Assembly (NCBI GenBank): GCA_038065075.1
Contig: JBBTRQ010000001.1
Span: 2,823 to 66,822, forward strand
Direction: 5' to 3'
Length of the DNA: 64,000 nt
Origin: Patescibacteria group bacterium
GTDB lineage: Bacteria > Patescibacteriota > Patescibacteriia > UBA9934 > GWF2-40-263
The position numbers and the translations under genes were made by a program. Below are positions 8,962 to 63,574 of the stretch, one piece after another (position 1 is the stretch's first letter; each line of letters opens with the position of its first letter). The notes below the pieces were generated by a model that saw only the letters and a list, made by a program, of their open reading frames with translations, did no database searches and was not told the DNA's origin.

Positions 8962-8966
8962 GTTTT

Positions 8967-8994
8967 GGTAGCCGCAAGCTTTAGCTTGCGTGCG
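8967..8994. repeat. palindromic repeat family 2 copy (GGTAGCC-GCAAGC-TTTA-GCTTGC-GTGCG), intergenic between the two pilin-like genes
   Basis: Same architecture as copies at 13467-13524 and 24991-25018. Confidence 0.6.
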
Positions 8995-8996
8995 TT

Positions 8997-10904
8997 CTAC
9001 AGTTCCGTCTCCGTGTTATCTGGGAGCGTCTCATCTTCCGCCGCCGCTTCTTGTTCCTCTGTCTGACATGCGCTTGCGGAAGAAATCCCGTTACAGCAGT
9101 AAGGTTGGTCTTCGTCTCTTCCTTCCGTGCAGTTCGATCCCGGGCCGATCGCCGGGTACATGCAGATCTGGTACGCGCTCTTGATCCCCTCGCTCAAGAC
9201 CGGCCAGTAGTCCCAGCCGCCAAGGTCTGTACTTACGAGCGTCGGATGCTCGATCAGTACGGTCGTGCGCTCTTCCACATCGTCATTGGACTTGCGGATC
9301 GCGAACCAAAATTCGTAATACGGATCAGGCCACAGGGACACACTGCTCGTATTCACCGTCGAAGACTTCAGATAGCTGTTGAACGTGACCTCCACGTCGG
9401 CGCTGGTACTGATCTCATCCTCCTCTATCTCGGGGTCGAGACCACCCGTAATAATCTGCGGCACGGTGTCTTCAATCTCGTCGTTGGTCGTGAAGCTCCA
9501 CTCGTAATTATCGTTGTCGCCAGCATCTTCACACTCGATGGTGTCTGACTCAGATCCACAAATGGTTCCCGCGACTTCCGGATCATAATCATTGTCGCCA
9601 TCCAGCGAATTGGCGGCCGCGTCCACGACTCCATCAAACGTGTATCCCGTTGGCTCTGCTTGAGGAATCTCTTCCTCGTTCAATGTTGCCGCTTTGGCCA
9701 TGGCCGAGATGAGCTGGTTGGTCGGGAGACAGTAAATGGTGTCCCCACACGGGTCTTCTCCACACGCGTCGGTCGTCGTGAAACTGATCGTGCGATACGC
9801 ATTGCTGATCTCAAACGTGCCTTCAACGTTGGCGAGTGCCGCATCGAGAACTTCAATGTTCGTGAATAGAGGCTCCTCGCCGATGATGTAGGAACCTGTA
9901 GTCGCAACTGGATCCATGGCCTCGCTGAAATTGATCTCGACGGTCACGTTGCGTGGCTCGTCCGCATCCGCCGCCGGAACAATGCTGGTCACATACGGTG
10001 GTGTCAGGTCGATTTCTGTAGAAACTTCAAACGTCCAGGAGTACCCACTCGCGTACGCACCGGAAAACGCGGCCGTGCCAGATGCCCGCTCAATGTCGGT
10101 TGTGAGCGACACGGTGTAATTTGTGTCTTGTTCGGATGAGCCGAGATACTCGACGGGATCAAAGACGAAAATCTCAAAGCCCTCATCGTGGGTCACGACC
10201 ACCTCATCGGAGGCAAGAGCCGATCCCGGACCCTCATCCGTTGGATAGATAACAACGGAATCGGTATTGAGATCCGTGGAGTCAGGATCCTCATCGTATC
10301 CGGAAATCATGGACGCAGGATTGATCGCCTCCTTGAACGTCACGAAGATTCTGGTGTTGCGAGGGATCTCGGTAGCGTCACGCTCGGGATAGTGGTCGTC
10401 GAGAATACCGCCGCCCAGTGAACCGGAAAGCGGCTCCGAATACGCGTCGGCCACGGCGGCGGACGAGCCGGTGAATGCCGCGTCCAACAGACGGTTCAAA
10501 ATGAACGTGGCGATCGAATAGGCGGAAAAAATGATAATGAGGCCGATGATGGACTGCTGGAAAATCTTCTTAGCTTTCTTGATCGGCTCTGGTTCCCCAC
10601 GAGCCAGCAAGTAGAGAAACCCCGCATAGATGATGACGCAGACAAAGATGATGCCGACCAAGGTCAGAGCCACGCGAATGACGCGCGCGATGATGATGGC
10701 GATCGAATCTTGTGAAAGGGTAGAGGCGTCCGCAAACTGTTCGAAGGAGGTGTCTTGCGCGAGGGCAGGAAACGCCACCGCGAAGAATCCAACAACGCAA
10801 AACGCCACGATCAAAACAATGAGCGCGCGTGCAAAAGGTCTAAATGGGTGCGCGAGAGGTCGATGCATGTTGGGACGCCTGCGCGTGCCTCTATTGTATC
10901 GCAT
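8997..10904 (-). CDS. secreted surface protein, 635 aa: signal peptide (..AFPALAQD) plus TrbC/VirB2-like pilin module paralogous to the giant gene N-terminus, followed by bacterial Ig-like/Big-type extracellular domains and an acidic C-terminus
   Basis: ORF track. The N-terminal 150 aa align motif by motif with the giant gene N-terminus (..IIAR.IR.A.T.VG....V..Y.GF.Y...G.PE..KKAK.I....IIGL...F). Possible alternative start at Met13. Confidence 0.6.
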   Translation of the reverse strand: MRYNRGTRRRPNMHRPLAHPFRPFARALIVLIVAFCVVGFFAVAFPALAQDTSFEQFADASTLSQDSIAIIIARVIRVALTLVGIIFVCVIIYAGFLYLLARGEPEPIKKAKKIFQQSIIGLIIIFSAYSIATFILNRLLDAAFTGSSAAVADAYSEPLSGSLGGGILDDHYPERDATEIPRNTRIFVTFKEAINPASMISGYDEDPDSTDLNTDSVVIYPTDEGPGSALASDEVVVTHDEGFEIFVFDPVEYLGSSEQDTNYTVSLTTDIERASGTAAFSGAYASGYSWTFEVSTEIDLTPPYVTSIVPAADADEPRNVTVEINFSEAMDPVATTGSYIIGEEPLFTNIEVLDAALANVEGTFEISNAYRTISFTTTDACGEDPCGDTIYCLPTNQLISAMAKAATLNEEEIPQAEPTGYTFDGVVDAAANSLDGDNDYDPEVAGTICGSESDTIECEDAGDNDNYEWSFTTNDEIEDTVPQIITGGLDPEIEEDEISTSADVEVTFNSYLKSSTVNTSSVSLWPDPYYEFWFAIRKSNDDVEERTTVLIEHPTLVSTDLGGWDYWPVLSEGIKSAYQICMYPAIGPGSNCTEGRDEDQPYCCNGISSASACQTEEQEAAAEDETLPDNTETEL

Positions 10905-10981
10905 TTCTCTTCAATGGTCGCTCAAAATATGTGGACAAAACAAAAAGAGCGAGCCTTGCGCCCGCTCTTTCTCTTGAATGA

Positions 10982-11734
10982 TTATCCGATCTCCTGCAGA
11001 ACAAGCGTGCTGATGCCAAAGAGGCCGGCAACGATCAGGGTGGCGAAGATGCCGTACGTCATCTTGGTGAGGGCGTCCGTATGCAAGTCATCGCGATTGG
11101 AGGCGATCATGTAAGCAAACCCGCCTTGTAGGATCAACGTAATCGCCGCAACGCCCAGCCAAAGCATAAGCACACGAACGATCCTCAACATAAACTCCGC
11201 GTAGGCAGGACCGCTTGAAAATGTCTCGATAAGCGGAACCGCGGCAAGAGCCTCGTGCGAGAAACTCAGTCCTACAACCACGAGCACGAACCCAGCCAAG
11301 AGCGATCCCACAATGTCCTTCACGCGAGATCCATCCGCGCGCCCGGCGACGGCGGCCATGGCCGCTCCCATCACCTTGCCCATATCGGCCTTGCTGGTCG
11401 CGCCGCTTTTTTCCACGACCTCCTTCACGATCCGCGCAAGCTCTTCGTCGCTCATCTGAGTGGGAAGATACTGTTCCAAGACGCCGATCTCCACCTGGAC
11501 ACTCACAGCCAAATCTTCTCTCCCGCCAGCCTTAAAGGACTCAATGGAATCCTTGAGCTGTTTGACCTGCGTCTTCACCACGTCCTGGACTTCCGCGTCC
11601 GAGAGTTCGTGTTGCACGTCGATCTTTTTATTCTTCATGGCAGAAAGCAACAAACGCAACGTGGAAAGCGTTGCGCTGTCTTTGGCTTTCATGGCAGCCT
11701 TCATGTTTTCTGTAATCTTCTCTGCCAGGGACAT
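10982..11734 (-). CDS. yqeY: GatB/YqeY-domain protein (aa 1-150, full-length match to YqeY) fused to a C-terminal TM segment plus TrbC/VirB2-like pilin module (aa 150-250)
   Basis: N-terminal half matches the YqeY consensus through ..SKADMGKVMGA...G.ADG; the C-terminal 100 aa match the paralogous pilin module (..RIVRVLMLWLGVAAITLILQGGFAYMIASNRDD..YGIFATLIVAGLF). Conserved rpsU-yqeY gene order. Confidence 0.65.
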   Translation of the reverse strand: MSLAEKITENMKAAMKAKDSATLSTLRLLLSAMKNKKIDVQHELSDAEVQDVVKTQVKQLKDSIESFKAGGREDLAVSVQVEIGVLEQYLPTQMSDEELARIVKEVVEKSGATSKADMGKVMGAAMAAVAGRADGSRVKDIVGSLLAGFVLVVVGLSFSHEALAAVPLIETFSSGPAYAEFMLRIVRVLMLWLGVAAITLILQGGFAYMIASNRDDLHTDALTKMTYGIFATLIVAGLFGISTLVLQEIG

Positions 11735-11743
11735 AGTCGAGGA

Positions 11744-11992
11744 TTAACGACGAGGGCCGCCCTGTGGACGTACAGTCTCTTCAAGCTGACCCACGCGAAT
11801 GAGATACTCGCGTCGGGCTCGGGCGACGATACGTCGCAGAGCGCTCTTTTTGACCTTCGTCTTATTAGGCTCCTCTACACGGAAACGTGTCTTCCTTACT
11901 TGAAGCATGCTTCCGCTTTGTTGGACGCGTCGAGAGAAGCGTCGGTAGAGGCTTTCAAAACTCTCGCCTTTTTTACGTTTAACGTTCACCAC
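11744..11992 (-). CDS. rpsU: 30S ribosomal protein S21
   Basis: 82 aa, basic, ..ESLYRRFSRRVQQSG...ARRE.. bS21-like. Confidence 0.75.
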   Translation of the reverse strand: MVNVKRKKGESFESLYRRFSRRVQQSGSMLQVRKTRFRVEEPNKTKVKKSALRRIVARARREYLIRVGQLEETVRPQGGPRR

Positions 11993-12022
11993 AGGATTTC
12001 CTTATCTATTATTTGGGAAGAA

Positions 12023-13456
12023 TTAAGCGATTGGATTTTGCGGAATGTTAGGGATTTTGTCAAGTTCTTCGTGCAGAAGCTTGCGCTTTACCAATCCCAC
12101 CACCTTTTTGACATCGACAATTTCCTGAGCCCCTGATTCCATGTCTCGAATGATGATGGTCCCATCAAGCACCTCTTTTTGACCCAAGATGAGGGTGAGT
12201 TCGACACCCATCTTGTTGGCAGCCTCGAGTTGGCCTTTCAGGGCATTCTTTCCAAACGCCTCCGCAACGGGTATGCCAGACTGGCGAAACTCCTCAAACA
12301 GTTTAAGGCCTACGCGTCGTGACGCATCCCCGAGCTGGGCGAAAAACACTTTTGCTGGTGGACGCTCCGGGGGGTTGATCCCCTTTGCTTCAAGCGCGCG
12401 AGCGATGCGCTCGATCCCCAGAGCAAACCCACAGGCGGGCGTAGGTCGGCCGCCAAGAAGTTCAACCAGACCGTCATATCGTCCACCCCCGCCCAAGGCA
12501 CTTTGTGAAAAATCTCCCACGTCTTCTTGAAGCGTGTACTCAAATACGGTGTGCGTGTAGTAGTCGAGTCCGCGAACGAGGTAAGGGTTAAGCTGATAAG
12601 GCACTTCAACCTCTTCGAGGAATTCCAAGACTTTCATGAAGTGTTCCTTACTCTTCTCGTCGAGCCAATCCAGAATCTGCGGCGCGCCCTGCAAGAGTTC
12701 GCGTGTCACTTCTTCTTTACTATCTAGGATGCGCAGAGGGTTCTTCTGCAAGCGACGTTTGTCGTCCTCGGAAAGTTTACTGCGATGTTGACGGAAGTAG
12801 GCCACCAGCTCGGTCAAGTACGCCACACGGCACTCAGACGTACCAATCGAGTTGATCTCGACCTTCACGTCCAGTCCAAGCTGTTTAAAAATCTGGTACC
12901 CGATGACGATAAGCTGGGCGTCCACAATAGACTCGTCCACGCCAAAGCTCTCAAATCCCGCCTGATAAAACTGACGATAGCGTCCAGCTTGCGGGCGATC
13001 GTGACGGAACATGGGTCCTAAGTACCACATCTTTACCGGCTGAGGACGATCGAGCATCCCGTGGCTGATGTAGGCACGCGCGGCACTGGCCGTCGCTTCG
13101 GGACGCAAAGCCACGGAGCGGTTTGAAGGATCGGTAAACACATACATCTCTTTCTCGACGATATCAGTCCCTTTCCCGATCGTGCGCTGGAACAAATCCG
13201 AGCGCTCCAGAATCGGAAGATCGATACGGTCAAAACTGTAGGACTCAGCAATGGACCGAATGGTGTCGCGCACTAAATTCCATCTTCCCTGCTCCTCTGG
13301 AAGGATGTCTCGAAATCCGCGTAAAAGCTCAAACGTCTTCCCGGATTTTCCTTCGCCTTCCTCCTCAACGCCCTCTTTCTTTGGCTCCTCCTTTGGTGGC
13401 GTCATTTTTTTCGAGGCTATCTCCTTTGCTGGAGCTTTTGATTTTTTCGGGAACAT
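12023..13456 (-). CDS. hisS: histidine--tRNA ligase with Lys/Glu-rich N-terminal extension
   Basis: Class II HisRS motifs (FELLRGFRDILPEE, GGGRYDGLVELLGG, CGFALGIERI). Confidence 0.9.
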   Translation of the reverse strand: MFPKKSKAPAKEIASKKMTPPKEEPKKEGVEEEGEGKSGKTFELLRGFRDILPEEQGRWNLVRDTIRSIAESYSFDRIDLPILERSDLFQRTIGKGTDIVEKEMYVFTDPSNRSVALRPEATASAARAYISHGMLDRPQPVKMWYLGPMFRHDRPQAGRYRQFYQAGFESFGVDESIVDAQLIVIGYQIFKQLGLDVKVEINSIGTSECRVAYLTELVAYFRQHRSKLSEDDKRRLQKNPLRILDSKEEVTRELLQGAPQILDWLDEKSKEHFMKVLEFLEEVEVPYQLNPYLVRGLDYYTHTVFEYTLQEDVGDFSQSALGGGGRYDGLVELLGGRPTPACGFALGIERIARALEAKGINPPERPPAKVFFAQLGDASRRVGLKLFEEFRQSGIPVAEAFGKNALKGQLEAANKMGVELTLILGQKEVLDGTIIIRDMESGAQEIVDVKKVVGLVKRKLLHEELDKIPNIPQNPIA

Positions 13457-13466
13457 ATGTTTCTTG

Positions 13467-13524
13467 GTAGCCCCAGGCTTTAGCCTGGGTGCAGCCGCAG
13501 CCCAGGCTAAAGCCTGGGACTACC
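13467..13524. repeat. palindromic repeat family 2, two inverted copies (GGTAGCC-CCAGGC-TTTA-GCCTGG-GTGCAGC / mirror) in the lepB-hisS spacer, 11 nt upstream of the hisS start
   Basis: Perfect nested hairpins seen in sequence. Confidence 0.65.
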
Positions 13525-13552
13525 TCATCGGGTGCAGTCGCAACCCGGTTGA

Positions 13553-14158
13553 CTACAAATTATAACTGGGAAGATCGAACGTGCCGATGCGAGAGAACGG
13601 AAGGCCGCGAACCCAGACGCGTCCGATGACGTCATCGCGGGTGATGGCGCCGAAACTGCGGGAGTCCAGGCTGGAGTCGCGGTTGTCACCAAACATGTAG
13701 TACTCATTATCCCCGAGGGTCACCCGAACCTTGCCGGTCGTCGACTCCTCTAGGTATGCCTCTTCGAGCACCAAACCGTTTGGATGCTCTGTGTTATAGA
13801 CCATGACGTTCCCGCCGGTCACTTCTATCGTCTCGCCAGGGAGTCCCACCACACGCTTGATGAAATACTGGCTGCGATCGCGTGGATATTTGAAGACGAC
13901 GATCTCTCCACGAAATGGATTACGGAAACGATAGGTGAGCTCGTCGATGATGAGATACTCTTGATCGTAGAAATTTGGTTCCATGCTTGCCCCTTTAACG
14001 TAGAACGGCTGGATGAGGAAGTATCGGATGGGAATGATGATGGCGCTGGAGATGATCACGATCTGGACGATCTCGAACAAAAAGGACAGCACAGCGCCCC
14101 CCACAGGCCCAAACCGATCGTAGAGTTTATCTTCAAAAGCCGAAAAACGTGAGGACAT
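13553..14158 (-). CDS. lepB: signal peptidase I
   Basis: S26 motifs GASMEPNF, YFIKRVVGLPGE, GDNRDSSLDSR. Confidence 0.85.
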   Translation of the reverse strand: MSSRFSAFEDKLYDRFGPVGGAVLSFLFEIVQIVIISSAIIIPIRYFLIQPFYVKGASMEPNFYDQEYLIIDELTYRFRNPFRGEIVVFKYPRDRSQYFIKRVVGLPGETIEVTGGNVMVYNTEHPNGLVLEEAYLEESTTGKVRVTLGDNEYYMFGDNRDSSLDSRSFGAITRDDVIGRVWVRGLPFSRIGTFDLPSYNL

Positions 14159-14255
14159 AAAGATGTGTACAGCGTATCAAGAAAATCAGACCGGGGCAAT
14201 AGATCACCACGAAAAAACAAAACGGATGCTTAGTCCGTTTTGATCTTGCGAATAT

Positions 14256-14570
14256 CTATTTATTTATCCACTCAAGCATTCGATTGAGTGCCGACTTGGG
14301 AGCCAGTTGCAAATACCCTTGCGGAAGATTATAGCCAGGTACTGTGTAACCTGGTGGTGATGTATAGCCGCCCGGGGTGGTGTATCCAGGTGTTCCATAA
14401 CCGGGAACGAGGCTTCCACCAAACAAACTTCCACCTGAGCGGTTCTTGAGTGAAACAGCTCCCGCGGCTGCCGCGGCCGCTAAGACAACCACCAGACCAA
14501 CGGCTACGGCCGTCCGTGTCGAACTAGTTACCTGCGTCTTCGTCATAGATATCAAATGAAGTGAATTCAT
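14256..14570 (-). CDS. small secreted/membrane protein with PGY/TPGG tyrosine-glycine-proline repeats
   Basis: ORF track; N-terminal hydrophobic segment plus GYTTPGGYTSPPGYTVPGYNLPQGY low-complexity. Overlaps the start of the upstream gene, so start uncertain. Confidence 0.35.
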   Translation of the reverse strand: MNSLHLISMTKTQVTSSTRTAVAVGLVVVLAAAAAAGAVSLKNRSGGSLFGGSLVPGYGTPGYTTPGGYTSPPGYTVPGYNLPQGYLQLAPKSALNRMLEWINK

Positions 14571-16614
14571 AAATGGTCATGCCCTCCTGATTCAATAGAC
14601 GATCAGCTCCTTCCTCCAGCTCCGCAAGAAGCTCCGGCGTCCACGCCCAATAGGCTGGCGCGGCAAAGTAGATGCGACGAACACCTGTCTCTTGAGCCAT
14701 TCGCAAGTAGGCTTCCTGAGAGGGCCCTTCATAGATCGTCGAGGTGTAGAGCCCGTAGAGTGATCCCCCTGTAGGGATAGCATACCAGAGAATCTCTTGA
14801 CCTTCATACCGATAGGTGTGGGCAAAACCAAACTCCTGAATAGCCGCCGCGCTCATGAGTTGGTGAGAAAGCACCAGATAAGGTTCGCCCTGACTCGCTT
14901 CCTCAATCAAATGGACTCCTTCGACATCGACAGCACTAACACCTGGAGAGAAGAACGGATACTTCAGGTTGTACTGCGGATAGGAAAAAAACCAAACGAC
15001 CACGACCAGAAGCGCCAGGAGAAACACCCTCCCAAACTCGAATCGGTGCAGACGTGCGAACACAACGACAAGGGGTGGAAGTGCAAACGTATAAAGAGCC
15101 TGCAGGAGACGAAGAGCGAACTCGAGCTGTTCATGCTGGATGATCCCTTCAAACGTGAACAGCGTCGACGCTCCCCAAATCGTCAGGAGGAGTCCAAGGG
15201 AAAACGTCAGGTGCCCTCGTGCGTTCGCGCGAACCGACGTACATGCGCATACAACGACCAACGATGTGAGGAACACCACGATGGGCAACCAATATCGGAA
15301 GTCATACAGGAAATCGAGTGCCCAGGGAATATACGGATACGGACCCCAGTAGGGACTCGCGAACAATCGGAAGAAGTCTGGAAGTTTTGTGACGAGCAGA
15401 CGGAGGCTACCACCGAGGTTCGTGTGCGATGCAATGGCTAGCATCGCGGGAACGGTGAGACCGACGAGCAGGACAGCGGCGGCGATGAACGCTATCCTCG
15501 CCAAAAAACTCTGCCGACCGACCACGAGGCGCTCGAAGAACAAAAAGACGAGAAGCGGCACAGCCAAGAGCGGATGGAACAGGACAGCGGCGACGAGTGC
15601 GAGCATGACCGACGCAAAACAAACTCGTGGTGCGCGAGCAACCCACGGATATGCCACCATAAAACCCAGGAATAGAACATACGTGACCGTGAACGGAACG
15701 GTGAATGTCGCCAGCATGAAGGGAATCGCAAGGATCCCGATCCACCACATGCGGGCCTGGCGTCGTGTAAGTCCCCACCCATGCTCGAACCCAAGGGTAG
15801 CCATGATTGGCAACCAAAGGCTCTCCACAACCGGCACGAGCCAGATGTCGATGAGCTTCACACTCAAGCCAGTCAGATGATGCAACGCGGCGACGATGAC
15901 GTACTGGCCGCTGTAGAGGAGTCGAACGGGCTCGACGACTCCTGTCTGCACGAGTGCCTCCTCAGCCGCGCGGTGCAGGAAGGGATCAAAGCCAAAGCCG
16001 ATGGCATACACGATCGCGGAAACGCTCAATGCGCTGAATGTCACAAACATCCATCCAATGAGCGGAACATCATCATCCCGCTCGCGTGCCGCAAGGATAG
16101 CCGAAACGATCGCGACGAACAGCAGAACAAAAGGCTCAGGACCAAACAGATTCCACGGGCTCACCAGAGGGATGTCTGTGCGCGCCAAGACCATGAGGCT
16201 AATGAGTAGCAGGCTTGCCAGAAGGCTGATGGCGCTGAAGAGCCAGGGTTGATTGCGTTCAATGCTCGGACACGGAAAAAAGCACATAACCCGACCTGAC
16301 CCCACGAGCAAACATCCGATGGTCACGAGCCAGAGGGTGAGCAGAATCATCCTCTCGTCCAAACGACCAACCGAGAGGTAAAGCCCGACCAAAAAAATCG
16401 TCGAGGTACCAAACACGGCCAGGGAACCAACAACAAGGCGCTCCCAAACATCCCTCCCAAAAACGGCCACGCGGCCAATCAAGACGACAACGCAACCAAA
16501 AAAGAGGAGGCTTCCAACCACCCCTATCCACCACATTCCAACACCCACGTTCATGCTCAAAATCACGCTGGCAACCAAAAGCACGATCCGTGGAGGATCC
16601 CAACGCATACTCAC
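14524..16614 (-). CDS. polytopic membrane protein (>=14 TM helices) with C-terminal extracytoplasmic domain; function unknown (glycosyltransferase-C-like topology)
   Basis: ORF track, hydrophobicity pattern. Confidence 0.5.
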   Translation of the reverse strand: MSMRWDPPRIVLLVASVILSMNVGVGMWWIGVVGSLLFFGCVVVLIGRVAVFGRDVWERLVVGSLAVFGTSTIFLVGLYLSVGRLDERMILLTLWLVTIGCLLVGSGRVMCFFPCPSIERNQPWLFSAISLLASLLLISLMVLARTDIPLVSPWNLFGPEPFVLLFVAIVSAILAARERDDDVPLIGWMFVTFSALSVSAIVYAIGFGFDPFLHRAAEEALVQTGVVEPVRLLYSGQYVIVAALHHLTGLSVKLIDIWLVPVVESLWLPIMATLGFEHGWGLTRRQARMWWIGILAIPFMLATFTVPFTVTYVLFLGFMVAYPWVARAPRVCFASVMLALVAAVLFHPLLAVPLLVFLFFERLVVGRQSFLARIAFIAAAVLLVGLTVPAMLAIASHTNLGGSLRLLVTKLPDFFRLFASPYWGPYPYIPWALDFLYDFRYWLPIVVFLTSLVVVCACTSVRANARGHLTFSLGLLLTIWGASTLFTFEGIIQHEQLEFALRLLQALYTFALPPLVVVFARLHRFEFGRVFLLALLVVVVWFFSYPQYNLKYPFFSPGVSAVDVEGVHLIEEASQGEPYLVLSHQLMSAAAIQEFGFAHTYRYEGQEILWYAIPTGGSLYGLYTSTIYEGPSQEAYLRMAQETGVRRIYFAAPAYWAWTPELLAELEEGADRLLNQEGMTIYEFTSFDIYDEDAGN

Positions 16615-17570
16615 GACTGTTTATCCCCCACCCAATCGTCAACAACCTCCTGAATGTCTCTGGCGGTCACACAGTCCTCGCATGTCTTAGCCGCGGCGTG
16701 CACGAGTCCTAGCGGGACACCGTGCCCGCGTCGTGAAAATTCAATCGCCACCTTGGCAGACGCCTCATCCATTACATCGATTGCCTTATCCGGAAGGAAT
16801 CGATTTTTGATTCGTTCATTCGAAAGCCGCACCGCTTCTTCAAGTGCTTCATCTTCAATCTTCACCTTATGGAACGTCTCATAGGCTGGGCGAATATGCT
16901 TGAGCATAGCCAACGCTTCCTGCGGGGTCGGTTCATCAACCGTCACGGGCTGGAATCGACGATCGAGCGGTTGGTCTTTTTGAATTGTACGCTCGTACTC
17001 CGCCCAGGTTGTCGCACCAATAACTTGAACCTCCCCACGAGCCAGCACAGGCTTGAAAACATCAGACACGTTGAGCGATCCCTCGGCACCCGAAAGCTGA
17101 TCGAGCATATGCACTTCGTCGATGAACAAGATCGCGCGACCTTGCATGCCTTGAAGTTCTGCTAACATCCGACGAAGCCGCGACTCCATCTCACCGCGAT
17201 ACTTGGTATCAGAAACAATCGAAGTCAAATCCAATGAGAGCAGCTGCTTATCCTTGAGTCCCTCGGGAACATCCCCGCTTGCTATACGACCGGCGAGCCC
17301 TTCGACAATGGCGGACTTCCCAACACCGGGCTGTCCGATAAGCAAAGGATTGTTCTTGGTTTTGCGCATGAGGATGTGGATCATGCGTTCAATCTCTTCC
17401 TCACGGCCAAAGAACAACTCCAGCTTATGCTCGCGAGCGAGCTGAGTAAGATCCTTTGAAAACGATCCAAACGAAGCTGGCTTTTTGGACGAAGGCCGGC
17501 GAAAGAAGACGAAGAATCCTCCCGCCGCAACCAAGATGAGAACCAGAACAAACAAGAGAGAGTCAGACAT
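16611..17570 (-). CDS. membrane-anchored AAA+ ATPase resembling the first nucleotide-binding domain of ClpA/ClpB/ClpC
   Basis: N-terminal TM helix; Walker A GQPGVGKSAIVEGLA, ..YRGEMESRLRRML.., ILFIDEVH. Confidence 0.7.
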   Translation of the reverse strand: MSDSLLFVLVLILVAAGGFFVFFRRPSSKKPASFGSFSKDLTQLAREHKLELFFGREEEIERMIHILMRKTKNNPLLIGQPGVGKSAIVEGLAGRIASGDVPEGLKDKQLLSLDLTSIVSDTKYRGEMESRLRRMLAELQGMQGRAILFIDEVHMLDQLSGAEGSLNVSDVFKPVLARGEVQVIGATTWAEYERTIQKDQPLDRRFQPVTVDEPTPQEALAMLKHIRPAYETFHKVKIEDEALEEAVRLSNERIKNRFLPDKAIDVMDEASAKVAIEFSRRGHGVPLGLVHAAAKTCEDCVTARDIQEVVDDWVGDKQS

Positions 17571-17575
17571 ATGAA

Positions 17576-20269: not shown

Positions 20270-20318
20270 AGGATAAAATCAGTATATCAAAAATCCCCAA
20301 GACTAGCTTGGAGATTTT

Positions 20319-20395
20319 TGGTGGGCGTGAGAGGGCTCGAACCTCTGACCTCTGTCGTGTGAGGACAGCGCTCTAACCAACTGAGCTACACGCCC
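20319..20395 (-). tRNA. tRNA-Val (anticodon CAC), CCA encoded
   Basis: Cloverleaf folded by eye from the reverse complement GGGCGTGTAGCTCAGTTGGTTAGAGCGCTGTCCTCACACGACAGAGGTCAGAGGTTCGAGCCCTCTCACGCCCACCA. Confidence 0.85.
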
Positions 20396-20402
20396 GTGAG
20401 GT

Positions 20403-20427
20403 CGAGCGACAGAGTAACACGGTGTGC
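20403..20427 (-). promoter_or_regulatory. conserved 25-nt block 7 nt upstream of tRNA-Val, identical to the block at 24213-24237
   Basis: cgagcgacagagtaacacggtgtgc present at the same spacing upstream of both tRNA-Val genes. Confidence 0.4.
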
Positions 20428-20470
20428 GCCCCCAGTCCTTGAAGTTTCCGGATGATCTGATAAGCTCCGG

Positions 20471-21154
20471 ATGGGTACTCGAACACTGGAGGTTCTCATG
20501 ACCGACAATCGGACATCGGTGGCTCGATTGCTGGACCAGATGTCCAGGGAACGCCTGCAAGCCTTGGATGAACGCCTGGCCAAGCTCGAACGGCCATGGA
20601 TCGAGCGGACGCACGATGCGTTCAAGGCTATCCCTGGTGCGCTTCGGGAGCTTGCGTCCGCGCCGGGCCCGTGGGGAGCCATGGTACTGATAATGCTGGC
20701 TCTGGTGGTCGGCATGCCTCTCATGGATCCAAACACCCGAAGCGCCATTGCCGAAGACTGGGTCATGGTCATGCTGCAACTGGGAGAGATCTTCCTGGCA
20801 CTGATCCTTGCCCTGCTGGTCTTCATGGGTCTGGTACAAGCAATCGATCGCTGGTCTGCGCTGCGCGGCATGGTACGCCGTGGCGAGATCGATCTGGTAC
20901 GAGCGTTTCGCCGCCGACCGGAGGTCTTCCTGCGCGCGCATAATCTGACGCTGCAACGACAGGGTCTGGAGTGGGTGTTGGAGGCGCTGGAGTTCCTTCA
21001 GAGACACCCGGACGCGACCGGCTTCGACGCGGCCGACTTGGACGCGGCCAAGACGCGCACCACGCTCGCGCTCATCCAGATCATCGAACAGATCGACCAT
21101 AACGCAGCGGAGCTTGGCGATCCGCTGCAAAGACGATCTCGACGGCCAGCTTGA
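20471..21154 (+). CDS. hypothetical membrane protein (227 aa), high GC3
   Basis: ORF track; the + frame has TM segments and a coding-like composition, whereas the overlapping minus ORF 20303..21295 is Arg-rich and judged spurious. Confidence 0.4.
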   Translation: MGTRTLEVLMTDNRTSVARLLDQMSRERLQALDERLAKLERPWIERTHDAFKAIPGALRELASAPGPWGAMVLIMLALVVGMPLMDPNTRSAIAEDWVMVMLQLGEIFLALILALLVFMGLVQAIDRWSALRGMVRRGEIDLVRAFRRRPEVFLRAHNLTLQRQGLEWVLEALEFLQRHPDATGFDAADLDAAKTRTTLALIQIIEQIDHNAAELGDPLQRRSRRPA

Positions 21155-21363
21155 TCCCGCCGCTATCGACTGACGCCACGCGACGCCATACGCAAGGCGA
21201 GCTAGCCATCGCCACCTTCCCACCCGGGGAGGTTTTTTATACAAGGCATTTTCAAATTCAATATCGCTGCACGGTATCCGGACGAACAGCAACAATTCGC
21301 GAAACGATACGACAACAAAAAAACGGCTAAGGCGTATCTGGACAACACCAACTCCATACTTCT

Positions 21364-21693
21364 ATGGCTACAAAAAAAGTTCCGAAACAGATAAAAGAGC
21401 TCGTACTGGGATATACCAACCGTGTGGAAAAAGAGATGAGGCTACCTGTCGGCAGTGTCTATGTCTACGGATCCCATGCGAAAGGCACTGCGACAAAGCA
21501 CTCTGATATTGACGTATGTGTTATCTCTCCGACATTCCGTGATCCACTCAAGGCGCTCCAACAGCTACTTGGGTACCGCACCGTCGACGAGGTCATGGCG
21601 GGGATTGAGCCGGTTGGTTTTTCTGCCAAACAATTCAAGCGCGGTGGAATCCTCATTGACGAAATCAAACGGACAGGGATACAGGTTCGATAA
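21364..21693 (+). CDS. nucleotidyltransferase-domain protein (Pol-beta superfamily, MNT antitoxin-like), no adjacent HEPN partner
   Basis: GSHAKGTATKHSDIDVCV motif. Confidence 0.75.
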   Translation: MATKKVPKQIKELVLGYTNRVEKEMRLPVGSVYVYGSHAKGTATKHSDIDVCVISPTFRDPLKALQQLLGYRTVDEVMAGIEPVGFSAKQFKRGGILIDEIKRTGIQVR

Positions 21694-21737
21694 AAAACCC
21701 TCGAACGAAAAACACTCCATGCTAGGTGGAGTGTTTT

Positions 21738-21797
21738 TGGTGGGCGTGAGAGGGCTCGAACCTCTGACCTCTGTCGTGTGAGGACGGCGCTCTAACT
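21738..21797 (-). pseudogene. 3' fragment of tRNA-Val (positions about 17-76 plus CCA), 63/64 identical to the 20319-20378 part of the intact tRNA-Val
   Basis: Direct repeat tttttggtgggcgtgagagggctcgaacctctgacctctgtcgtgtgaggacGgcgctctaac; lacks the 5' acceptor/D-arm strand. Confidence 0.6.
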
Positions 21798-21823
21798 GAT
21801 AAAAAAAGACGCTCAAGTGAGCG

Positions 21824-22927
21824 TCAGCGCGTCGTCCTGGGTCTGCGCGGCGGGAGGACGTTGCCGCCAGGAGCCTGGGTCGTCGCCTCAATTTCATGGT
21901 CGGCGGCATTCGCGGCGACGTTGTGAGTCACGTCGCGCCGAAGTTCGCGTAGCTTCCTATCCAAGTCGTCGCACTGGGGAACGCTCATGAGCAGGCCCAT
22001 CGCGATGGGCTCGATGTCCTTGGGGAAGAATGCATCGAGTTCACCGGCCTGCAGCCGAGCCGTCGAAGTCTGTTCGATGAGCGCAAACGCGCGTTGGCGA
22101 TCCTCATGCGTCTGGCACTCGATGAGACGCGTGGCAAGACGATCACGCAACCCCTGTGCACGCTCCCGGAGCGTCTGCAGATGCATCTGCGCCTCGCTGG
22201 ACGCTCCGGACAGTACTGCCGCCATCTGCTCTTCATTCCTCTTCATCGACACAAGCGCCGCGTCGATGACCCTCAGAGCTTCTCCGGTTTCCCTTAGCGC
22301 CTGGGTGATACTGTCGGGCTTCTTGGGCCGCAAGTTCTCTATGCCGTCGGGGTAGTCCTCAAACAGCGCGCCCCCAAGCCAGGGCGACACGGAGCGCAGA
22401 GCGCTCTGAAGCACCGCCTGGATTTTGAGCACGGCATGCCGTTCGTGCCACAAGCGTATATGTTCTTCCGCGGATTCGATTCCCTCCTGCACCGCCGCCA
22501 GCGTCTTCTGGTGTTCGCCGAGTTGGAGCGTAGGCATCGGAGCTGTGTATCGCTGCTGCAGCTCCGTAAGGAGCGAGCGCAGATCCTTGCACTGCCGCTC
22601 CAGCCGCCGCGCGTTCTGCACTGCCTCTTCCATTGCGCCGTCCACGGGCGAACCATGTCGCCAATCACGGTATCTCTTATCACGCGCCTCTTTCCAGCTC
22701 TCGTACGCGGTGAGGATTCCGAAGAAACACATCCGCAAGACGAAAGCGATCAGGAAGGCGCCTCCAAGACACACGGCCAGCACAACCAAGATCTGAACGG
22801 CCACGATAAGGATGTGGACAAGCGCGCGAACCGCTTCGACCACGAAAATGCCCACGGCCACAACGCACAAGACGGCGAGGAGGCCAATGCACCCATAGAT
22901 GGTGTCGTCTCCCTGGTTGTTGCTCAT
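21824..22927 (-). CDS. membrane-anchored (2 TM) coiled-coil protein, 367 aa, unknown function
   Basis: ORF track; high GC3. Confidence 0.5.
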   Translation of the reverse strand: MSNNQGDDTIYGCIGLLAVLCVVAVGIFVVEAVRALVHILIVAVQILVVLAVCLGGAFLIAFVLRMCFFGILTAYESWKEARDKRYRDWRHGSPVDGAMEEAVQNARRLERQCKDLRSLLTELQQRYTAPMPTLQLGEHQKTLAAVQEGIESAEEHIRLWHERHAVLKIQAVLQSALRSVSPWLGGALFEDYPDGIENLRPKKPDSITQALRETGEALRVIDAALVSMKRNEEQMAAVLSGASSEAQMHLQTLRERAQGLRDRLATRLIECQTHEDRQRAFALIEQTSTARLQAGELDAFFPKDIEPIAMGLLMSVPQCDDLDRKLRELRRDVTHNVAANAADHEIEATTQAPGGNVLPPRRPRTTR

Positions 22928-22962
22928 GGTGAGCTCCTTACGGGAACAATTCCGTATCTTGT

Positions 22963-24003
22963 CTACCGGTTACCGCTCTCGTTGGAACCTCGACGTCGCC
23001 CTCCGATCGCATCGGCAATCGTCTTGCCTAGGAATGCAAGCGTCGGATCCACTCCGGCTCCCGAAAGCTCTTTGACGGCGCAGTGTCCTTCCGCCACGGT
23101 TGAACGGACGCTCTGCCAGGCCACGGATCGAGCAACGAACCCGATCTGCCGAATGTGCTCATTCAGGAGACCTCCGCCGTCCTGCGCCATAAGCCTGTTG
23201 AGCTCTCCAAATCGCGCCGGGGTGAGCTCCACCGACCGGGTAATGCCGGCAGCGCCCAACGCCAGCTGCGCGACGGTCTGCACCCGCCCGCGAATGGCGG
23301 CCTCGGCCTCCATGTTGAGCTCGGTGAGCACAAGCCGTGCCGTCTGCGGCGTCACGTGCCGCTGGTCATCCACCATGACTCCCGCCACCACGCGCAACTG
23401 CGCCTCCATCCTTTCCCCGCCCGGGTTGAGATGCACCGTCACATCGAACTCTTGATCCGATGTATTGATGATAGCCACAGGCTCGCCCAAGTAGGGAAAC
23501 CCTGTGCTGAATCTCCCGCGCTGGAGCGCAGAATCGTTGCTGGCCGTAATCCAGCCGCGATCGCTACCCCTGCGAGCCATGAAACGGTTTATACACACGA
23601 GCTCCTCATTGGGCTGTAGGAGCCTCACCCATGTGAAGTCCGCCGGGCGAACGAACTTGCCGGTGTGGATCTTGAATCCGTGCAGCTTTTCGAAGTCGAC
23701 TGGCTCGGATTTCGAACGGCTCTTCTCGGACAGCTTGAAAGCCGCCAAGCCCACAACGACAACCGCGATGAGCATGCCCGCCAGAATCGGAAGGATCACT
23801 TTCATGAGCATCAACGCAAGCGGGATGCCCAGAACCACCGCGAGCACCCGAACCCAGGGCTTCTTCATCGCCGCGGCCATCGGAGGTGGGAGCTTGATGC
23901 GCTTGGGCGAGTTCACCGGCGCCGCCGTCTTCACAGGAAGATCGCTCTGATCCCGAAGAACCGGGAGCGCTCCTTTGCGTCCTTCTTCATTGTTTCCAGT
24001 CAT
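22963..24003 (-). CDS. single-pass membrane protein with a C-terminal domain weakly resembling SPFH/band-7 (346 aa)
   Basis: ORF track; TM at aa 50-90. Confidence 0.45.
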   Translation of the reverse strand: MTGNNEEGRKGALPVLRDQSDLPVKTAAPVNSPKRIKLPPPMAAAMKKPWVRVLAVVLGIPLALMLMKVILPILAGMLIAVVVVGLAAFKLSEKSRSKSEPVDFEKLHGFKIHTGKFVRPADFTWVRLLQPNEELVCINRFMARRGSDRGWITASNDSALQRGRFSTGFPYLGEPVAIINTSDQEFDVTVHLNPGGERMEAQLRVVAGVMVDDQRHVTPQTARLVLTELNMEAEAAIRGRVQTVAQLALGAAGITRSVELTPARFGELNRLMAQDGGGLLNEHIRQIGFVARSVAWQSVRSTVAEGHCAVKELSGAGVDPTLAFLGKTIADAIGGRRRGSNESGNR

Positions 24004-24128
24004 GATGCACTCTCCTTATGTAAGGAACTTTCCGATCACACATTCACATAAATTCTCGCGTACGTCAATGCATCGTGCATAGCAAAAACCGAACAAGGGA
24101 TCTGTCCGGTTTTGTTGAGTCGATCAGA

Positions 24129-24205
24129 TGGTGGATGTTGGAGGACTCGAACCTCCGACCTCTGTCGTGTGAGGACAGCGCTCTAACCAGCTGAGCTAAA
24201 CATCC
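24129..24205 (-). tRNA. tRNA-Val (anticodon CAC), second copy with a different acceptor/T stem
   Basis: Reverse complement GGATGTTTAGCTCAGCTGGTTAGAGCGCTGTCCTCACACGACAGAGGTCGGAGGTTCGAGTCCTCCAACATCCACCA. Confidence 0.85.
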
Positions 24206-24283
24206 ATATATGCGAGCGACAGAGTAACACGGTGTGCACCCCTTTTCAAGAGCGGGTAGAATCGTTAGAATGAACCAGGAACT

Positions 24284-25978
24284 ATGGTCGAGAAGCCACG
24301 CGTCAATTTACTCAAACGGCATCACACCCCGCGAGCGACGAAACGATCGCCCGCGCTTTTTTTTGGTCGCCGGTTGTTTATCACGTTAGCGGTGTTAGCG
24401 GCGGTCGGCATCATCTTCTCCTCTCAAGTAAGCTCGACCTCCGAAAGCTCCGGCTCCTTCCCTGACTTTTCTCTTTTCTCAGCCATCAAGCATCTTGTAT
24501 CTTCGGGAGACCGGGACCTTGAAGGTGAGGAAGAAGACCGCGTGAATTTCCTTCTCCTGGGCATCGGAGGTGAGGGACACGACGGTCCGCAACTGACTGA
24601 CACCATTATCTTTACGAGTTTTCGTCCTTCCGACGGCGCGGTCGCGATGATGTCGCTCCCCCGCGACATGACGGTTCCCATCCCTAATTATGGGTATCGC
24701 AAAGTGAACCATGCCAATGCCTACGGCGAGATGGACAATCCGGGTTCGGGGCCTGAACTCGCCTCGCAAGTCATCGGGGACGTCTTGGACGAAGAGATCA
24801 ACTATTACCTCCGCATAGACTTTAAGGGCTTTGAAGAATTTGTGGACGCCATCGGCGGCGTGGATGTGTACATCGAAAACGGATTCACCGATTCAAACTA
24901 TCCGATTGAAGGAAAAGAATACGACGAGTGCGGTGACGAACCGTCCGAAACATCCGACCTCTTGGTCGAATCTGACCCAGAAACGACAGAGGTAGCCGCA
25001 GGCTTTAGCCTGCGCGAGTCGCAGGAAGAACCCACCGAGCTCGCGCAGATTCTCGCGATCGACGAAGAGGAAGAAATCCTCGAAGAAGCCCTCGATGAAG
25101 AAAATCTCCCCGAGGTAGTGCCGGACTATTCCTGCCGCTTTGAGTCCATCACCTTTTATGAGGGCTGGACGCACATGGATGGAAGAACCGCGCTCAAGTT
25201 CGCCCGCTCACGACATGGGAACAGCGGTGATGGCTCGGACTTTGCTCGCAGTAAGCGCCAACAAAAAATCATCCTCGCCGTAAAAGACAAAGTGCTGTCG
25301 GCCTCGACCTTTTTGAACCCCTCACGCATCTCCAAGATGATGGACACGCTGAAAGCCAACATCTCGACCAACCTGGACGTGTGGGAGATTGTTCGACTGG
25401 CGGGTGAGTTCAAAAACGTGAGCGCTTCGGAAATCACCAACCATGTCATCGACGCGTCCGACGCTTCCCCGTTGTACGCGACGGTTCTCAACGGCGCGTA
25501 TGTGCTCCTCCCCAAGAACGACGATTGGGAACCGATTCAAAACATCGCTGAACATATTTTCACGCCGGACTCAGAACTCAACACCCAGTTTGCTGATGCC
25601 CCTGAACAGAAACCGAAATTCGTGAAAGTAGAAATCCAAAACGGCACAAACATCACGGGACTGGCGTTCACCACCTCGCAACTGTTGGACGGCCAGGGAT
25701 TTGACGTGGTGAAGGTCGGCAACGCCGTGAGCCGCGACTATGCCCATACGGTCATCTACGATCTCACCAACGGCCAGCGCTCAGATGAACTCAAGGCCTT
25801 GCGTGACTACCTGCAGGCGGACGTGACCTTGTCGGCAACCGGTTGGATGCTTTCCGGCGACGTCGTGCCACAGGAAATTGCATTCTCTTCGGACGATTAC
25901 GAACGATTAGCCACCCAAGAAAACATTGACTTTTTGGTCATTCTGGGAGAGTCTGCGAGCGGCCTGGCACGATACTAA
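24284..25978 (+). CDS. LytR-CpsA-Psr (LCP) family cell-wall polymer ligase with an acidic insertion and a C-terminal LytR_C domain
   Basis: N-terminal TM; LCP motifs (DTIIFTS.., MSLPRDM, YLRIDF.GF, ..KFARSRH.., RQQ); insert aa about 205-275 is Glu/Asp-rich and contains a repeat family 2 copy. Confidence 0.85.
   Translation: MVEKPRVNLLKRHHTPRATKRSPALFFGRRLFITLAVLAAVGIIFSSQVSSTSESSGSFPDFSLFSAIKHLVSSGDRDLEGEEEDRVNFLLLGIGGEGHDGPQLTDTIIFTSFRPSDGAVAMMSLPRDMTVPIPNYGYRKVNHANAYGEMDNPGSGPELASQVIGDVLDEEINYYLRIDFKGFEEFVDAIGGVDVYIENGFTDSNYPIEGKEYDECGDEPSETSDLLVESDPETTEVAAGFSLRESQEEPTELAQILAIDEEEEILEEALDEENLPEVVPDYSCRFESITFYEGWTHMDGRTALKFARSRHGNSGDGSDFARSKRQQKIILAVKDKVLSASTFLNPSRISKMMDTLKANISTNLDVWEIVRLAGEFKNVSASEITNHVIDASDASPLYATVLNGAYVLLPKNDDWEPIQNIAEHIFTPDSELNTQFADAPEQKPKFVKVEIQNGTNITGLAFTTSQLLDGQGFDVVKVGNAVSRDYAHTVIYDLTNGQRSDELKALRDYLQADVTLSATGWMLSGDVVPQEIAFSSDDYERLATQENIDFLVILGESASGLARY
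24991..25018. repeat. palindromic repeat family 2 copy (GGTAGCC-GCAGGC-TTTA-GCCTGC-GCGAG) in-frame inside the LCP gene (encodes ..EVAAGFSLRE..)
   Basis: Sequence identity of architecture with 8967-8994 and 13467-13524. Confidence 0.6.
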
Positions 25979-37980: not shown

Positions 37981-38015
37981 AAAAACACTCGTGAGTGATC
38001 ACGAGTGTTTTTGGT
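37981..38015. terminator. bidirectional intrinsic terminator shared by convergent tRNA-Met(+) and tRNA-fMet(-)
   Basis: aaaaa-CACTCGTG-agtgat-CACGAGTG-ttttt. Confidence 0.7.
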
Positions 38016-38351
38016 TGCGGGGACCGGATTTGAACCGGTGACCTCTTGGTTATGCTTACCACTACAGTTTTCACTGCCTCTGAATTTCATCAGAGTTTGT
38101 AGTCTGGACTTTCCCTTGTCCGTCTTCATTGTGAAGGACGGACCCTACCATCAAGTCTCTACACTTTCCTCTCTTATGTAAGAAAGGCTTAGCTCGGGAT
38201 TACCACCATAGGAGGCTTCCCCGAATTTGATAGGATTCATCCGACCGTTTCTGGTCGGACAGCCCATTGCGATATCAGATGCCATCTACGTTGGTTTCGT
38301 TGCATCCGATCGAATCGAGCCAAGCGAGCTGCCAGGCTGCTCTACCCCGCG
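38012..38351 (-). tRNA. initiator tRNA-fMet (CAT) interrupted in the anticodon loop (after U33) by a 263-nt intron; exons 38318-38351 (34 nt) and 38012-38054 (43 nt incl. CCA)
   Basis: Exons concatenate to CGCGGGGTAGAGCAGCCTGGCAGCTCGCTTGGCT|CATAACCAAGAGGTCACCGGTTCAAATCCGGTCCCCGCAACCA, near-identical to E. coli tRNA-fMet; C1:A72 mismatch and A11:U24 initiator identity elements. Confidence 0.75.
38055..38317 (-). ncRNA. group I-like self-splicing intron (no ORF) within tRNA-fMet
   Basis: 5' exon ends in U, intron ends in G; P/Q/R-like elements (AAATTCGGGGAAGCC, AATCCCGAGC, GTCCAGACTACAAAC); P9-like hairpin ACTACAAACTCTGATGAAATTCAGAGG..CTGTAGTGG. Confidence 0.6.
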
Positions 38352-51783: not shown

Positions 51784-51804
51784 AATCCCCCATGAGGGGG
51801 ACTT
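51782..51804. terminator. palindromic repeat family 1 hairpin (aaaaTCCCCCatgaGGGGGActt) between convergent genes
   Basis: Seen in sequence. Confidence 0.55.
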
Positions 51805-51806
51805 GG

Positions 51807-63046: not shown

Positions 63047-63070
63047 AAAAATCCCCCGCGAGGGGGATCT
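63047..63070. terminator. palindromic repeat family 1 hairpin (aaaaaTCCCCCgcgaGGGGGAtct) between convergent genes
   Basis: Seen in sequence. Confidence 0.55.
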
Positions 63071-63545: not shown

Positions 63546-63574
63546 AAAAATCCCCCCGCGAGGGGGTTTTAAAA
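63546..63574. terminator. palindromic repeat family 1 hairpin (aaaaaTCCCCCCgcgaGGGGGtttt) immediately after the stop of the 63569..63832(-) gene
   Basis: Seen in sequence. Confidence 0.55.

Follow-up and report, generated by a model that had tools for sequence, protein, structure and literature searches.

The window analysed here, a 64,000-nt stretch (64 kb) of contig JBBTRQ010000001.1 from a Patescibacteria group bacterium (assembly GCA_038065075.1), carries at three loci four copies of a short hairpin-forming repeat, GGTAGC-C(G/C)CA(A/G)GC-TTTA-GC(T/C)TG(C/G)G. One copy lies between two genes for large secreted proteins with type IV secretion system (T4SS) pilin domains, two form an inverted pair between lepB and hisS, and the last is found inside an LCP gene, where it is translated. 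All four share a 24-nt unit with a perfect 7-bp stem, a 4-nt TTTA loop and an unpaired GTAG head. These hairpins are best labelled repetitive extragenic palindromic (REP) repeats, or REPINs (REP doublets forming hairpins), and not leaders or terminators. REPs are non-autonomous miniature mobile elements, and the REP-associated tyrosine transposase (RAYT, or TnpA-REP) is a Y1 transposase of the HUH type related to the transposases of IS200/IS605. The evidence presented below makes it very probable that the window copies belong to the GTAG-tagged REP family, that the inverted pair is a dimer of the REPIN type, and that the copies are mobile elements served by a RAYT.

Window copies and their gene context

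Detection was carried out by using a covariance model made from 66 distinct family members from other genomes together with the window copies, applied to every window position with the filters off. The four copies scored between 37.4 and 43.1 bits (E ~1e-9 to 1e-11), and the next-best match, at 10.7 bits (E ~0.5), was the palindrome read on the opposite strand. Since nothing else rose above 10.7 bits, the number of copies in the window is exactly four, and the model detected no degenerate or decayed ones there. The four copies described in an earlier, sequence-only reading of this DNA (the first-pass annotation) are all present, with 0 or 1 mismatch; the GTGC tail that it had counted as part of the family fell away, only the G that closes the stem being conserved. 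The copies are spaced 4.5 and 11.5 kb apart and occur in both orientations relative to transcription, one of them within a coding region. The + strand, whose GC skew is uniformly negative, carries the GTAG of the copies at 8967, 13466 and 24991, four copies being too few to interpret in this respect.

Copy 1 fills a 35-nt gap between the two pilin-domain genes, which are co-directional and on the minus strand, and lies 6 nt past the TAG (8997-8999) that ends the upstream gene and 5 nt ahead of the ATG (8961) of the downstream one. The genes lepB and hisS, both on the minus strand, are 96 nt apart, and the pair sits in this gap. The inverted arrangement and the setting between these genes stand as first described, with corrections in detail: the left arm starts at 13466 and not at 13467, its head lies 9 nt and not 11 nt upstream of the hisS ATG (13456), and the right arm is separated from the lepB stop (13553-13555), just after which it had been placed, by 28 nt on the downstream side. 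Gene callers choose a later hisS start, giving 460 aa; since the orthologs begin MFPKK or MFKKN, the first ATG is taken as the real one. According to a repeat finder run on the window, the arms of the dimer are 96% complementary, and the dimer folds as a single hairpin of ~27 bp. The RNA fold of the 121-nt spacer region that contains it reaches -67.1 kcal/mol (z -8.3), and the DNA fold of the dimer alone -30.3 kcal/mol (z -8.8). Lying at the 3' end of lepB and immediately upstream of the pair, a sigma-70-like match (TCGGCA-17-TATAAT, 10/12; 13587-13559, minus strand) was also observed; a genuine promoter there would make the pair part of the 5' untranslated region (UTR) of hisS, and such matches number 3 in the region vs 2.3 expected from shuffled sequence.

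In relatives, these two spacers look different. The syntenic Uhrbacteria locus L129 is repeat-free at both, its pilin-like genes being 3 nt apart and its lepB-hisS gap measuring 5 nt, and in L128 the lepB-hisS gap (L128:1824-1922) is occupied by an unrelated inverted heptamer array, GGTAGTAGGGAATAGGTTGTAGG ... CCTACCACCTACCACCTACTTCCTACAACC. Repeats seem to land recurrently at the lepB-hisS junction, and nothing was found in support of a specific hisS-leader function, related Uhrbacteria having a 5-nt gap or an unrelated repeat there. Near-identical contigs occur in several Hainich groundwater assemblies, the window being 100% identical to CAYHTY010000001.1 (GCA_964359885.1). Six assemblies of one population (>99.6% identical) all carry the pair, and the dimer is identical in the five others.

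The family in other genomes

A scan of 185,579 species, each represented by one genome (1.2e12 positions in all), was performed with the pattern GGTAGCCNCANGCTTTAGCNTGNG and its 20 fixed bases. The exact matches number at least 131 and are spread over at least 119 stretches, where chance under even base composition would give about one. The further copies on which the first-pass annotation had made its reading depend therefore exist in number, in other genomes. According to the record titles, the stretches bear about 17 phylum-level labels: Nitrospirota, Thermodesulfobacteriota/Desulfobacterota, Omnitrophota, Planctomycetota, Verrucomicrobiota, Bacteroidota/Ignavibacteria, Elusimicrobiota, Acidobacteriota, Armatimonadota, Chloroflexota, Cloacimonadota, Nitrospinota, Aerophobetes, Firestonebacteria, Clostridia, Gamma-/Alphaproteobacteria, and Patescibacteria, including an Uhrbacterium. 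Mis-binning cannot explain this spread, because the matches include complete chromosomes and megabase contigs; CP113000.1 and OY969108.1 are complete genomes in which the repeat occurs. In some cases, such as Caldimicrobium and the Gammaproteobacteria RBG_16_37_9, several contigs of one metagenome-assembled genome (MAG) carry copies.

The proposal that the stems co-vary, made from the window copies, is supported by this larger set. The two stem pairs that the pattern leaves free are the only unbiased check of pairing, and among the matches listed they are paired in 97% and 96% of cases: the first in 127 of 131 (G-C 118, C-G 5, T-A 2, G-T 2) and the second in 126 of 131 (G-C 109, A-T 16, C-G 1), with changes from G-C to A-T and from G-C to C-G. 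In the 66 distinct members, a set that allowed one mismatch in the head, A4 never varies and the conservation of G2, T3 and G5 reaches 90% or more, whilst the stem is changed on both sides at five of the seven pairs, with G-C/A-U/C-G exchanges at three. Partner copies beside the exact matches have the stems GCAACC/GGTTGC, GCACCC/GGGTGC, GCAAGT/ACTTGC and GCAGTC/GACTGC, the head and the loop remaining unchanged. Adjacent inverted pairs elsewhere have their heads outside in 48 cases and inside in 12, with spacers mostly of 4-30 nt, and the window pair (heads outside, 11 nt) agrees with the commoner arrangement.

The repeat also has companions in some of these genomes. At L007, L008, L013, L025, L032, L068, L083, L110, L112 and L115, which belong to Desulfobacterota, Nitrospirota and Planctomycetota, the REP adjoins tandem heptamer arrays (CAGTGGC, CAGAAGA, CAGGGGT and similar), which are similar to cyanobacterial short tandem heptamer repeats (STRR). 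In Caldimicrobium MAGs (L020, L043, L046, L088) its copies take turns with those of another palindrome that has a GTAG head, GTAGGGGCACAGCATGCTGTGCCC, and the resulting mosaic clusters recall the bacterial interspersed mosaic elements (BIMEs) of E. coli; two REP families therefore coexist in one genome. In MAGs of Deltaproteobacteria and Anaerolineae (L030, L033, L047, L061, L066, L105, L111) the REP is found together with a longer-stem partner (GCACAGGC-GAGA/GGAAA-GCCTGTGC-TACC), and the two are framed by conserved sequence, ...GCAATCAAAAAG... before the pair and ...CAATTGA(C/T)TGCG after it, the frame being itself an inverted repeat, which suggests a larger composite miniature element. Seven IMG/VR viral contigs (L134-L140) have a perfect REP copy each, one as an overlapping inverted pair, and none of them encodes a RAYT; phage was considered as a vector, and these contigs are too little to argue viral spread.

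Association with RAYT genes

All open reading frames (ORFs) within 2 kb of the motif were clustered over the 119 loci. No common neighbour gene was found in these loci apart from a three-locus cluster of Y1 transposases of 150-160 aa, the largest clusters being generic (sensor kinases, ABC ATPases). The three proteins (L063, L024 and L039) scored 89.4, 96.8 and 98.8 bits against NCBIfam NF047646, whose cut-off is 80, vs 21-27 bits against the IS200 model, whose cut-off is 55. With Pfam Y1_Tnp, L063 and L024 were above the cut-off and L039, a 95-aa fragment, was below it (17.9 vs 23). The L063 protein contains 'PDHLHAIL' and 'NYYDHLIR', in keeping with the HUH and catalytic Tyr motifs of the Y1 fold, and JGI and NCBI give its homologues the name RayT or REP-associated tyrosine transposase.

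In five unrelated genomes, the repeat directly flanks the RAYT gene in inverted orientation (Table 1). The RAYTs of L130-L133 (three homologues) were fetched by protein identity and not by the DNA pattern, which makes them an independent test of the association. The flanked RAYTs are 46-55% identical to one another, with 26-40% for the L024 protein, and despite this divergence the repeat is nearly unchanged. Such a RAYT gene bracketed by REPs, known as a REPtron, is what defines a REP/RAYT pair (PMC2817692; PMC3733652).

The copy within the LCP gene

The LCP gene (24284-25978, plus strand) encodes the domains PF03816 and PF13399 on either side of copy 4, which is translated in frame as E-V-A-A-G-F-S-L-R (residues 236-244). 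The closest named orthologs come from Candidatus Uhrbacteria (Patescibacteria), and the homology search also lists entries of the same length and 100% identity. In a nucleotide alignment with a repeat-free ortholog (L126), the copy falls in a precise insertion of 33 nt whose flanks are otherwise alignable; AGG stands at both junctions, which leaves the boundaries uncertain by 3 nt. The 3' junction can be read as C/A (the slash marking the joint), a RAYT cleavage dinucleotide, which is not used as evidence given the single event and the 3-nt ambiguity. Judged from this alignment, the LCP copy is a genuine insertion.

The segment had been presented as an atypical acidic insertion of the protein. 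The acidic linker itself occurs in all Uhrbacteria orthologs, and what is specific to the lineage are 11 codons within it: the closest orthologs (85-90% identity) lack the 11 residues (PETTEVAAGFS, or an equivalent placement). Among the 86 orthologs with a parsable linker, 79 have no repeat-type peptide, so that most LCP orthologs are without the segment, and the case foreseen earlier, in which all would carry it, does not apply. Five lineages do carry such a peptide, at different positions of the same acidic linker, and perfect hairpin DNA lies behind it in two lineages other than that of the window, L128 (GGTAGCCCCAGGCTTTAGCCTGGG) and L129 (GGTAGCCCCAGACTTTAGTCTGGG), the L129 copy showing a compensatory change (GGC-to-GAC / GCC-to-GTC). 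All these peptides use the same reading frame, because a reading that sets out from the head meets TAG in every frame but GTA-GCC-..., the one of the three that is open. The AlphaFold model of the LCP protein, which is of moderate quality (mean pLDDT, the predicted local distance difference test score, 60.7), stays under 50 over residues 218-277 and reaches averages of 79-91 in the blocks on either side. The insertion falls inside this low-scoring segment, and the modelled site agrees with a flexible loop in which insertions are tolerated.

Table 1. Repeat copies in the window, the LCP insertion and its peptides, and RAYT genes bracketed by the repeat
Feature	Position	Strand	Sequence	Remarks
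REP copy 1	8967-8990	+	GGTAGC-CGCAAGC-TTTA-GCTTGCG	0 mismatch, 42.9 bits
REP pair, left arm	13466-13489	+	GGTAGC-CCCAGGC-TTTA-GCCTGGG	0 mismatch, 40.5 bits
REP pair, right arm	13501-13524	-	GGTAGT-CCCAGGC-TTTA-GCCTGGG	1 mismatch (head GGTAGTC), 37.4 bits
REPIN-like dimer	13466-13524			Inverted arms, GTAG heads outside, 11-nt spacer
REP copy 4, inside LCP gene	24991-25014	+	GGTAGC-CGCAGGC-TTTA-GCCTGCG	0 mismatch, 43.1 bits
Insertion in LCP gene	24990-25022	+	AGGTAGCCGCAGGCTTTAGCCTGCGCGAGTCGC	33 nt (11 codons); nucleotide alignment vs repeat-free ortholog in L126
Empty LCP site			...ACGACAG/AGGAAGAAC...	Junction at the slash
Repeat-type peptide, window			EVAAGFSLR	
Repeat-type peptide, P0004			EVAPGFPAR	
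Repeat-type peptide, P0037/P0038			EVAPGFSLG	
Repeat-type peptide, P0062			EGFSLP	
Repeat-type peptides, P0072			DGFSLK and EVAPDFSLG	
RAYT, L063	4341-4826	-		Inverted REPs at 4312-4335(+) and 4845-4868(-), 5 and 18 nt from the gene ends
RAYT, L039				REP pairs on both sides
RAYT, L132 (Desulfobaccales)	2001-2492			Perfect copies at 1971-1994(+) and 2504-2527(-)
RAYT, L133 (WOR-3)				Four REP copies upstream, five downstream
RAYT, L130/L131 (Ignavibacteria)				Diverged GTAG-headed copies on both sides

Proposed mechanism and alternative explanations

The RAYTs of other REP/RAYT pairs bind the folded single-stranded REP and not its complement, require both the GTAG and the stem-loop, cut at a CT or CA dinucleotide on one side of the hairpin (5' or 3'), and are able to transfer the strand, binding and cleavage having been shown for systems of E. 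coli, Stenotrophomonas and Marinomonas (PMC8266576). By analogy, the 7-bp stem and TTTA loop of the present repeat would form a hairpin in single-stranded DNA, which a RAYT may recognise together with the adjacent unpaired GTAG, cutting at CT or CA by the hairpin and joining the released strand elsewhere. All three window loci would be such insertions in this Uhrbacteria lineage. The insertion in the LCP gene may have survived because it lies in a variable, low-confidence acidic linker, its 33 nt keep the frame, and it is read in the only frame free of stops. The hairpins are also expected to form in transcripts, where the helix of the pair (~27 bp) would end 9 nt before the hisS start; any effect on mRNA stability or on initiation at that start would be a by-product.

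A mobile origin is favoured because of the defining anatomy of the repeat, its position on both flanks of RAYT genes in unrelated genomes, and a presence that varies at orthologous sites among Uhrbacteria. Several observations weigh against it. No RAYT was found by tblastn in the 64 kb of the window or in ~97 kb of other Patescibacteria DNA (all E > 0.5), and no Patescibacteria label occurs among the 120 best homologues of the L063 protein. Copy density is low, with 4 copies in the 64 kb window and, for every 3-20 kb of the other Patescibacteria loci, 1-2 strong copies (besides three weaker matches to the model). Recent movement was not seen, since all six near-identical assemblies carry the pair. 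Finally, the percentage of paired positions in the 66-member set is circular, because its members were selected for at most one stem mismatch. Some of these points lend themselves to a possible, if rather doubtful, alternative in which the copies are relics, spread once by a RAYT that has since been lost in Uhrbacteria, and now neutral or mildly useful hairpins that protect mRNA 3' ends or space co-transcribed genes. This is a variant of the same explanation and concerns present activity only. It draws on the lack of a RAYT in the Patescibacteria sequence examined (about 160 kb), on the low density, and on the absence of presence/absence variation among the six assemblies, and REP-bearing genomes without RAYT are known, as in many E. 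coli strains (PMC3733652). Against it stand the four perfect stems and the 96% complementarity of the pair arms, which suggest little decay, and the fact that insertions differ among Uhrbacteria that share 60-90% LCP identity, so that activity continued during the diversification of this group.

A dedicated cis-regulatory RNA, either an attenuator or leader of hisS or an intercistronic processing or stabilising signal between the pilin-like genes, would fit the position of two of the three loci, which occupy short co-directional spacers 5 and 9 nt upstream of starts, as well as the very stable RNA hairpin of the pair (-67 kcal/mol for the spacer region, z -8.3) and a hisS 5' UTR of the kind that the sigma-70-like match would create, though such matches are hardly in excess (3 vs 2.3). 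It is nevertheless very unlikely, given that the LCP copy has, relative to transcription, the opposite orientation to the others (and lies inside a coding region), that the same sequence stands by unrelated genes in more than 100 genomes with only RAYT standing out nearby, and that the orthologous hisS spacers of L128 and L129 are without the repeat. The first-pass annotation had left the choice open between a structured mobile element and an RNA element; mobile DNA is the half that is retained, and a dedicated regulatory RNA is given up in view of the mixed orientations, the copy in coding sequence, and the lack of an Rfam match and of a T-run. Rfam 15 returned nothing at the repeat sites, its only matches in the window being four tRNAs and one group I intron. 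Intrinsic terminators were likewise rejected: no REP site in 8800-13700 is terminator-like, with tails AAAAC, AAGAAAC and CTCATCG, and the tails read at the LCP copy, GCGAGTC (+) and TCTGTCG (-), have no T-run. A CRISPR array does not fit either, the copies being far apart, the pair inverted, and regular arrays absent among the 131 matches listed. Slightly less credible still than a regulatory RNA is a site read by a protein on double-stranded DNA, such as an operator or nucleoid-protein site, or else a DNA uptake sequence. The motif is palindromic, uptake sequences are often inverted pairs, and the competence protein DprA is encoded in the genome neighbourhood of relatives, but compensatory stem changes that keep the pairing are the signature of a folded single strand and not of duplex recognition by base, and the GTAG head, found at just one of its sides, makes the element asymmetric. 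In addition, a density of ~1 per 16 kb is far below that of uptake sequences, and the repeat occurs under ~17 phylum labels rather than in one lineage and brackets RAYT genes. Chance similarity of short GC-rich hairpins has a negligible probability: a loose pattern with two mismatches is indeed expected 2.15 times in the window, but three of the copies have 0 mismatch and one has 1, their scores are 37-43 vs 10.7 bits, and the repeat is present in more than 100 other genome stretches.

Comparison with known systems

The kind of element, a GTAG-tagged REP/REPIN with its RAYT, is already known. Di Nocera, De Gregorio and Rocco described the GTAG-tagged REP super-family, its dimers, REPtrons and REPs inside genes, and reported that these repeats lie between co-directional or convergent genes and are sometimes intragenic (Di Nocera, De Gregorio & Rocco, 2013; PMC3733652). 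With these families, with the REPINs (Bertels & Rainey, 2011; PMC3116915) and with the REP/BIME of E. coli, the present repeat shares a 24-nt unit, an unpaired GTAG and a short loop. Further points in common with GTAG-tagged REPs are a stem in the range of 6-9 bp with compensatory variants, occurrence as singles and as inverted dimers, preferentially with heads outside, a location mostly between co-directional genes and occasionally within genes, and the bracketing of RAYT genes. The repeat differs from the families of the 2013 survey (PMC3733652) by its host, a Patescibacterium from a group outside the 8 phyla surveyed, and by its low copy density; moreover, most described REP families are restricted to a species or genus, whereas the present unit is near-identical over about 17 phylum labels.

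A close structural parallel is offered by the REPtron Mb of Marinomonas sp. MWYL1, which belongs to group 3 TnpA-REP and has a small perfect palindrome, unpaired bases before the GTAG and a T-T-T-A loop (Corneloup et al., 2021; PMC8266576). In that system the single-stranded REP was cleaved in vitro at CT/CA beside the hairpin, with the GTAG as guide (PMC8266576). The stem is 5 bp in Marinomonas and 7 bp here (or 6 bp with two unpaired C), and the stem sequences are unrelated. IS200/IS605 elements such as IS608 and ISDra2 also rely on a Y1 HUH transposase that acts on single-stranded hairpins, with a tetranucleotide 5' of the hairpin guiding cleavage (PMC8266576). Their hairpins are the subterminal ends of an autonomous, transposase-carrying element that moves as a whole, in contrast with the hairpins described here, which are dispersed alone and have no transposase in the window, the associated RAYTs reaching 21-27 vs 55 bits on the IS200 model.

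As for insertion into coding sequence, the LCP copy is like the Rickettsia palindromic elements (RPE) and other intragenic REPs in being an in-frame palindromic insert translated as extra loop residues. RPE-1 is about 100-150 bp long, and its sequence is unrelated to that of the present repeat. RPE-4 and RPE-6 are of the CGTC-tagged class, while the insert studied here has 33 nt, is GTAG-tagged and has the LCP acidic linker as a recurrent target. In the literature, RPE-1 is counted among the 'longer palindromic insertions', and within genes of the same kind the site of insertion sometimes differs from one species to another (PMC3733652).

The exact sequence was absent from the searchable literature, from the supplementary files of PMC3733652 (Figure 1 of that paper lying outside the comparison) and from the text of PMC2817692, and the searchable literature contains no report of REP/RAYT in the Candidate Phyla Radiation. 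Within these sources, the sequence family, its presence in Patescibacteria, and its near-identity across phyla despite the divergence of the RAYTs appear to be undescribed.

Work on REP/RAYT systems has dealt almost exclusively with Proteobacteria. A single REP that is nearly unchanged over many uncultivated phyla, together with transposases of about half identity, represents a natural experiment on hairpin recognition and on movement between phyla, and, should the window genome lack a RAYT, it would show REPs persisting in streamlined genomes. A bolder and tentative claim, for which the chances are rather against than in favour, is that GGTAGCCGCAGGCTTTAGCCTGCG and its stem variants form, with one RAYT clade, a single system kept near base-for-base across ~17 phylum-level groups, genome-reduced Patescibacteria included, and repeatedly recruited as coding sequence for the LCP loop. 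If true, it would imply either an unusually rigid and ancient code of protein-DNA recognition or repeated transfer of REPtrons between phyla, neither of which would square easily with the current view that REPIN-RAYT systems are lineage-specific and passed on vertically. For the LCP protein itself, a mobile origin would make the 11 extra residues transposon-derived and not a functional motif, and the recurrent in-frame copies in one enzyme loop would be a small, clean case of mobile DNA turning into protein sequence.

Other features of the window

Apart from the REP copies, the window contains other repeated and structured sequences. The 3' part of tRNA-Val(CAC) is repeated at 20310-20353, 21729-21851 and 24120-24242. 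The intact tRNA-Val(CAC) genes lie at 20319-20395(-) and 24129-24205(-), and the tRNA fragment at 21729-21851, 1.4 kb from the first of them; between the fragment and the intact gene lies a small island, with a nucleotidyltransferase (NTP_transf_2/Polbeta) gene among its contents. The tRNA repeat looks like an attachment-site duplication left by an integrated element. A group I intron (RF00028, 56 bits, 38078-38281, minus strand) adjoins a stretch that resembles a tRNA 3' half (38003-38046), and the segment 38003-38281 (-) is probably an intron-split tRNA gene that ARAGORN did not call. Another small palindromic family, AAAATCCCCC-GCGA/ATGA-GGGGGAT, possibly the first family implied when the first-pass annotation called the present one its second, is found at 51781-51805, 63047-63071 and 63547-63571, with A-rich/T-rich flanks and a terminator-like form.

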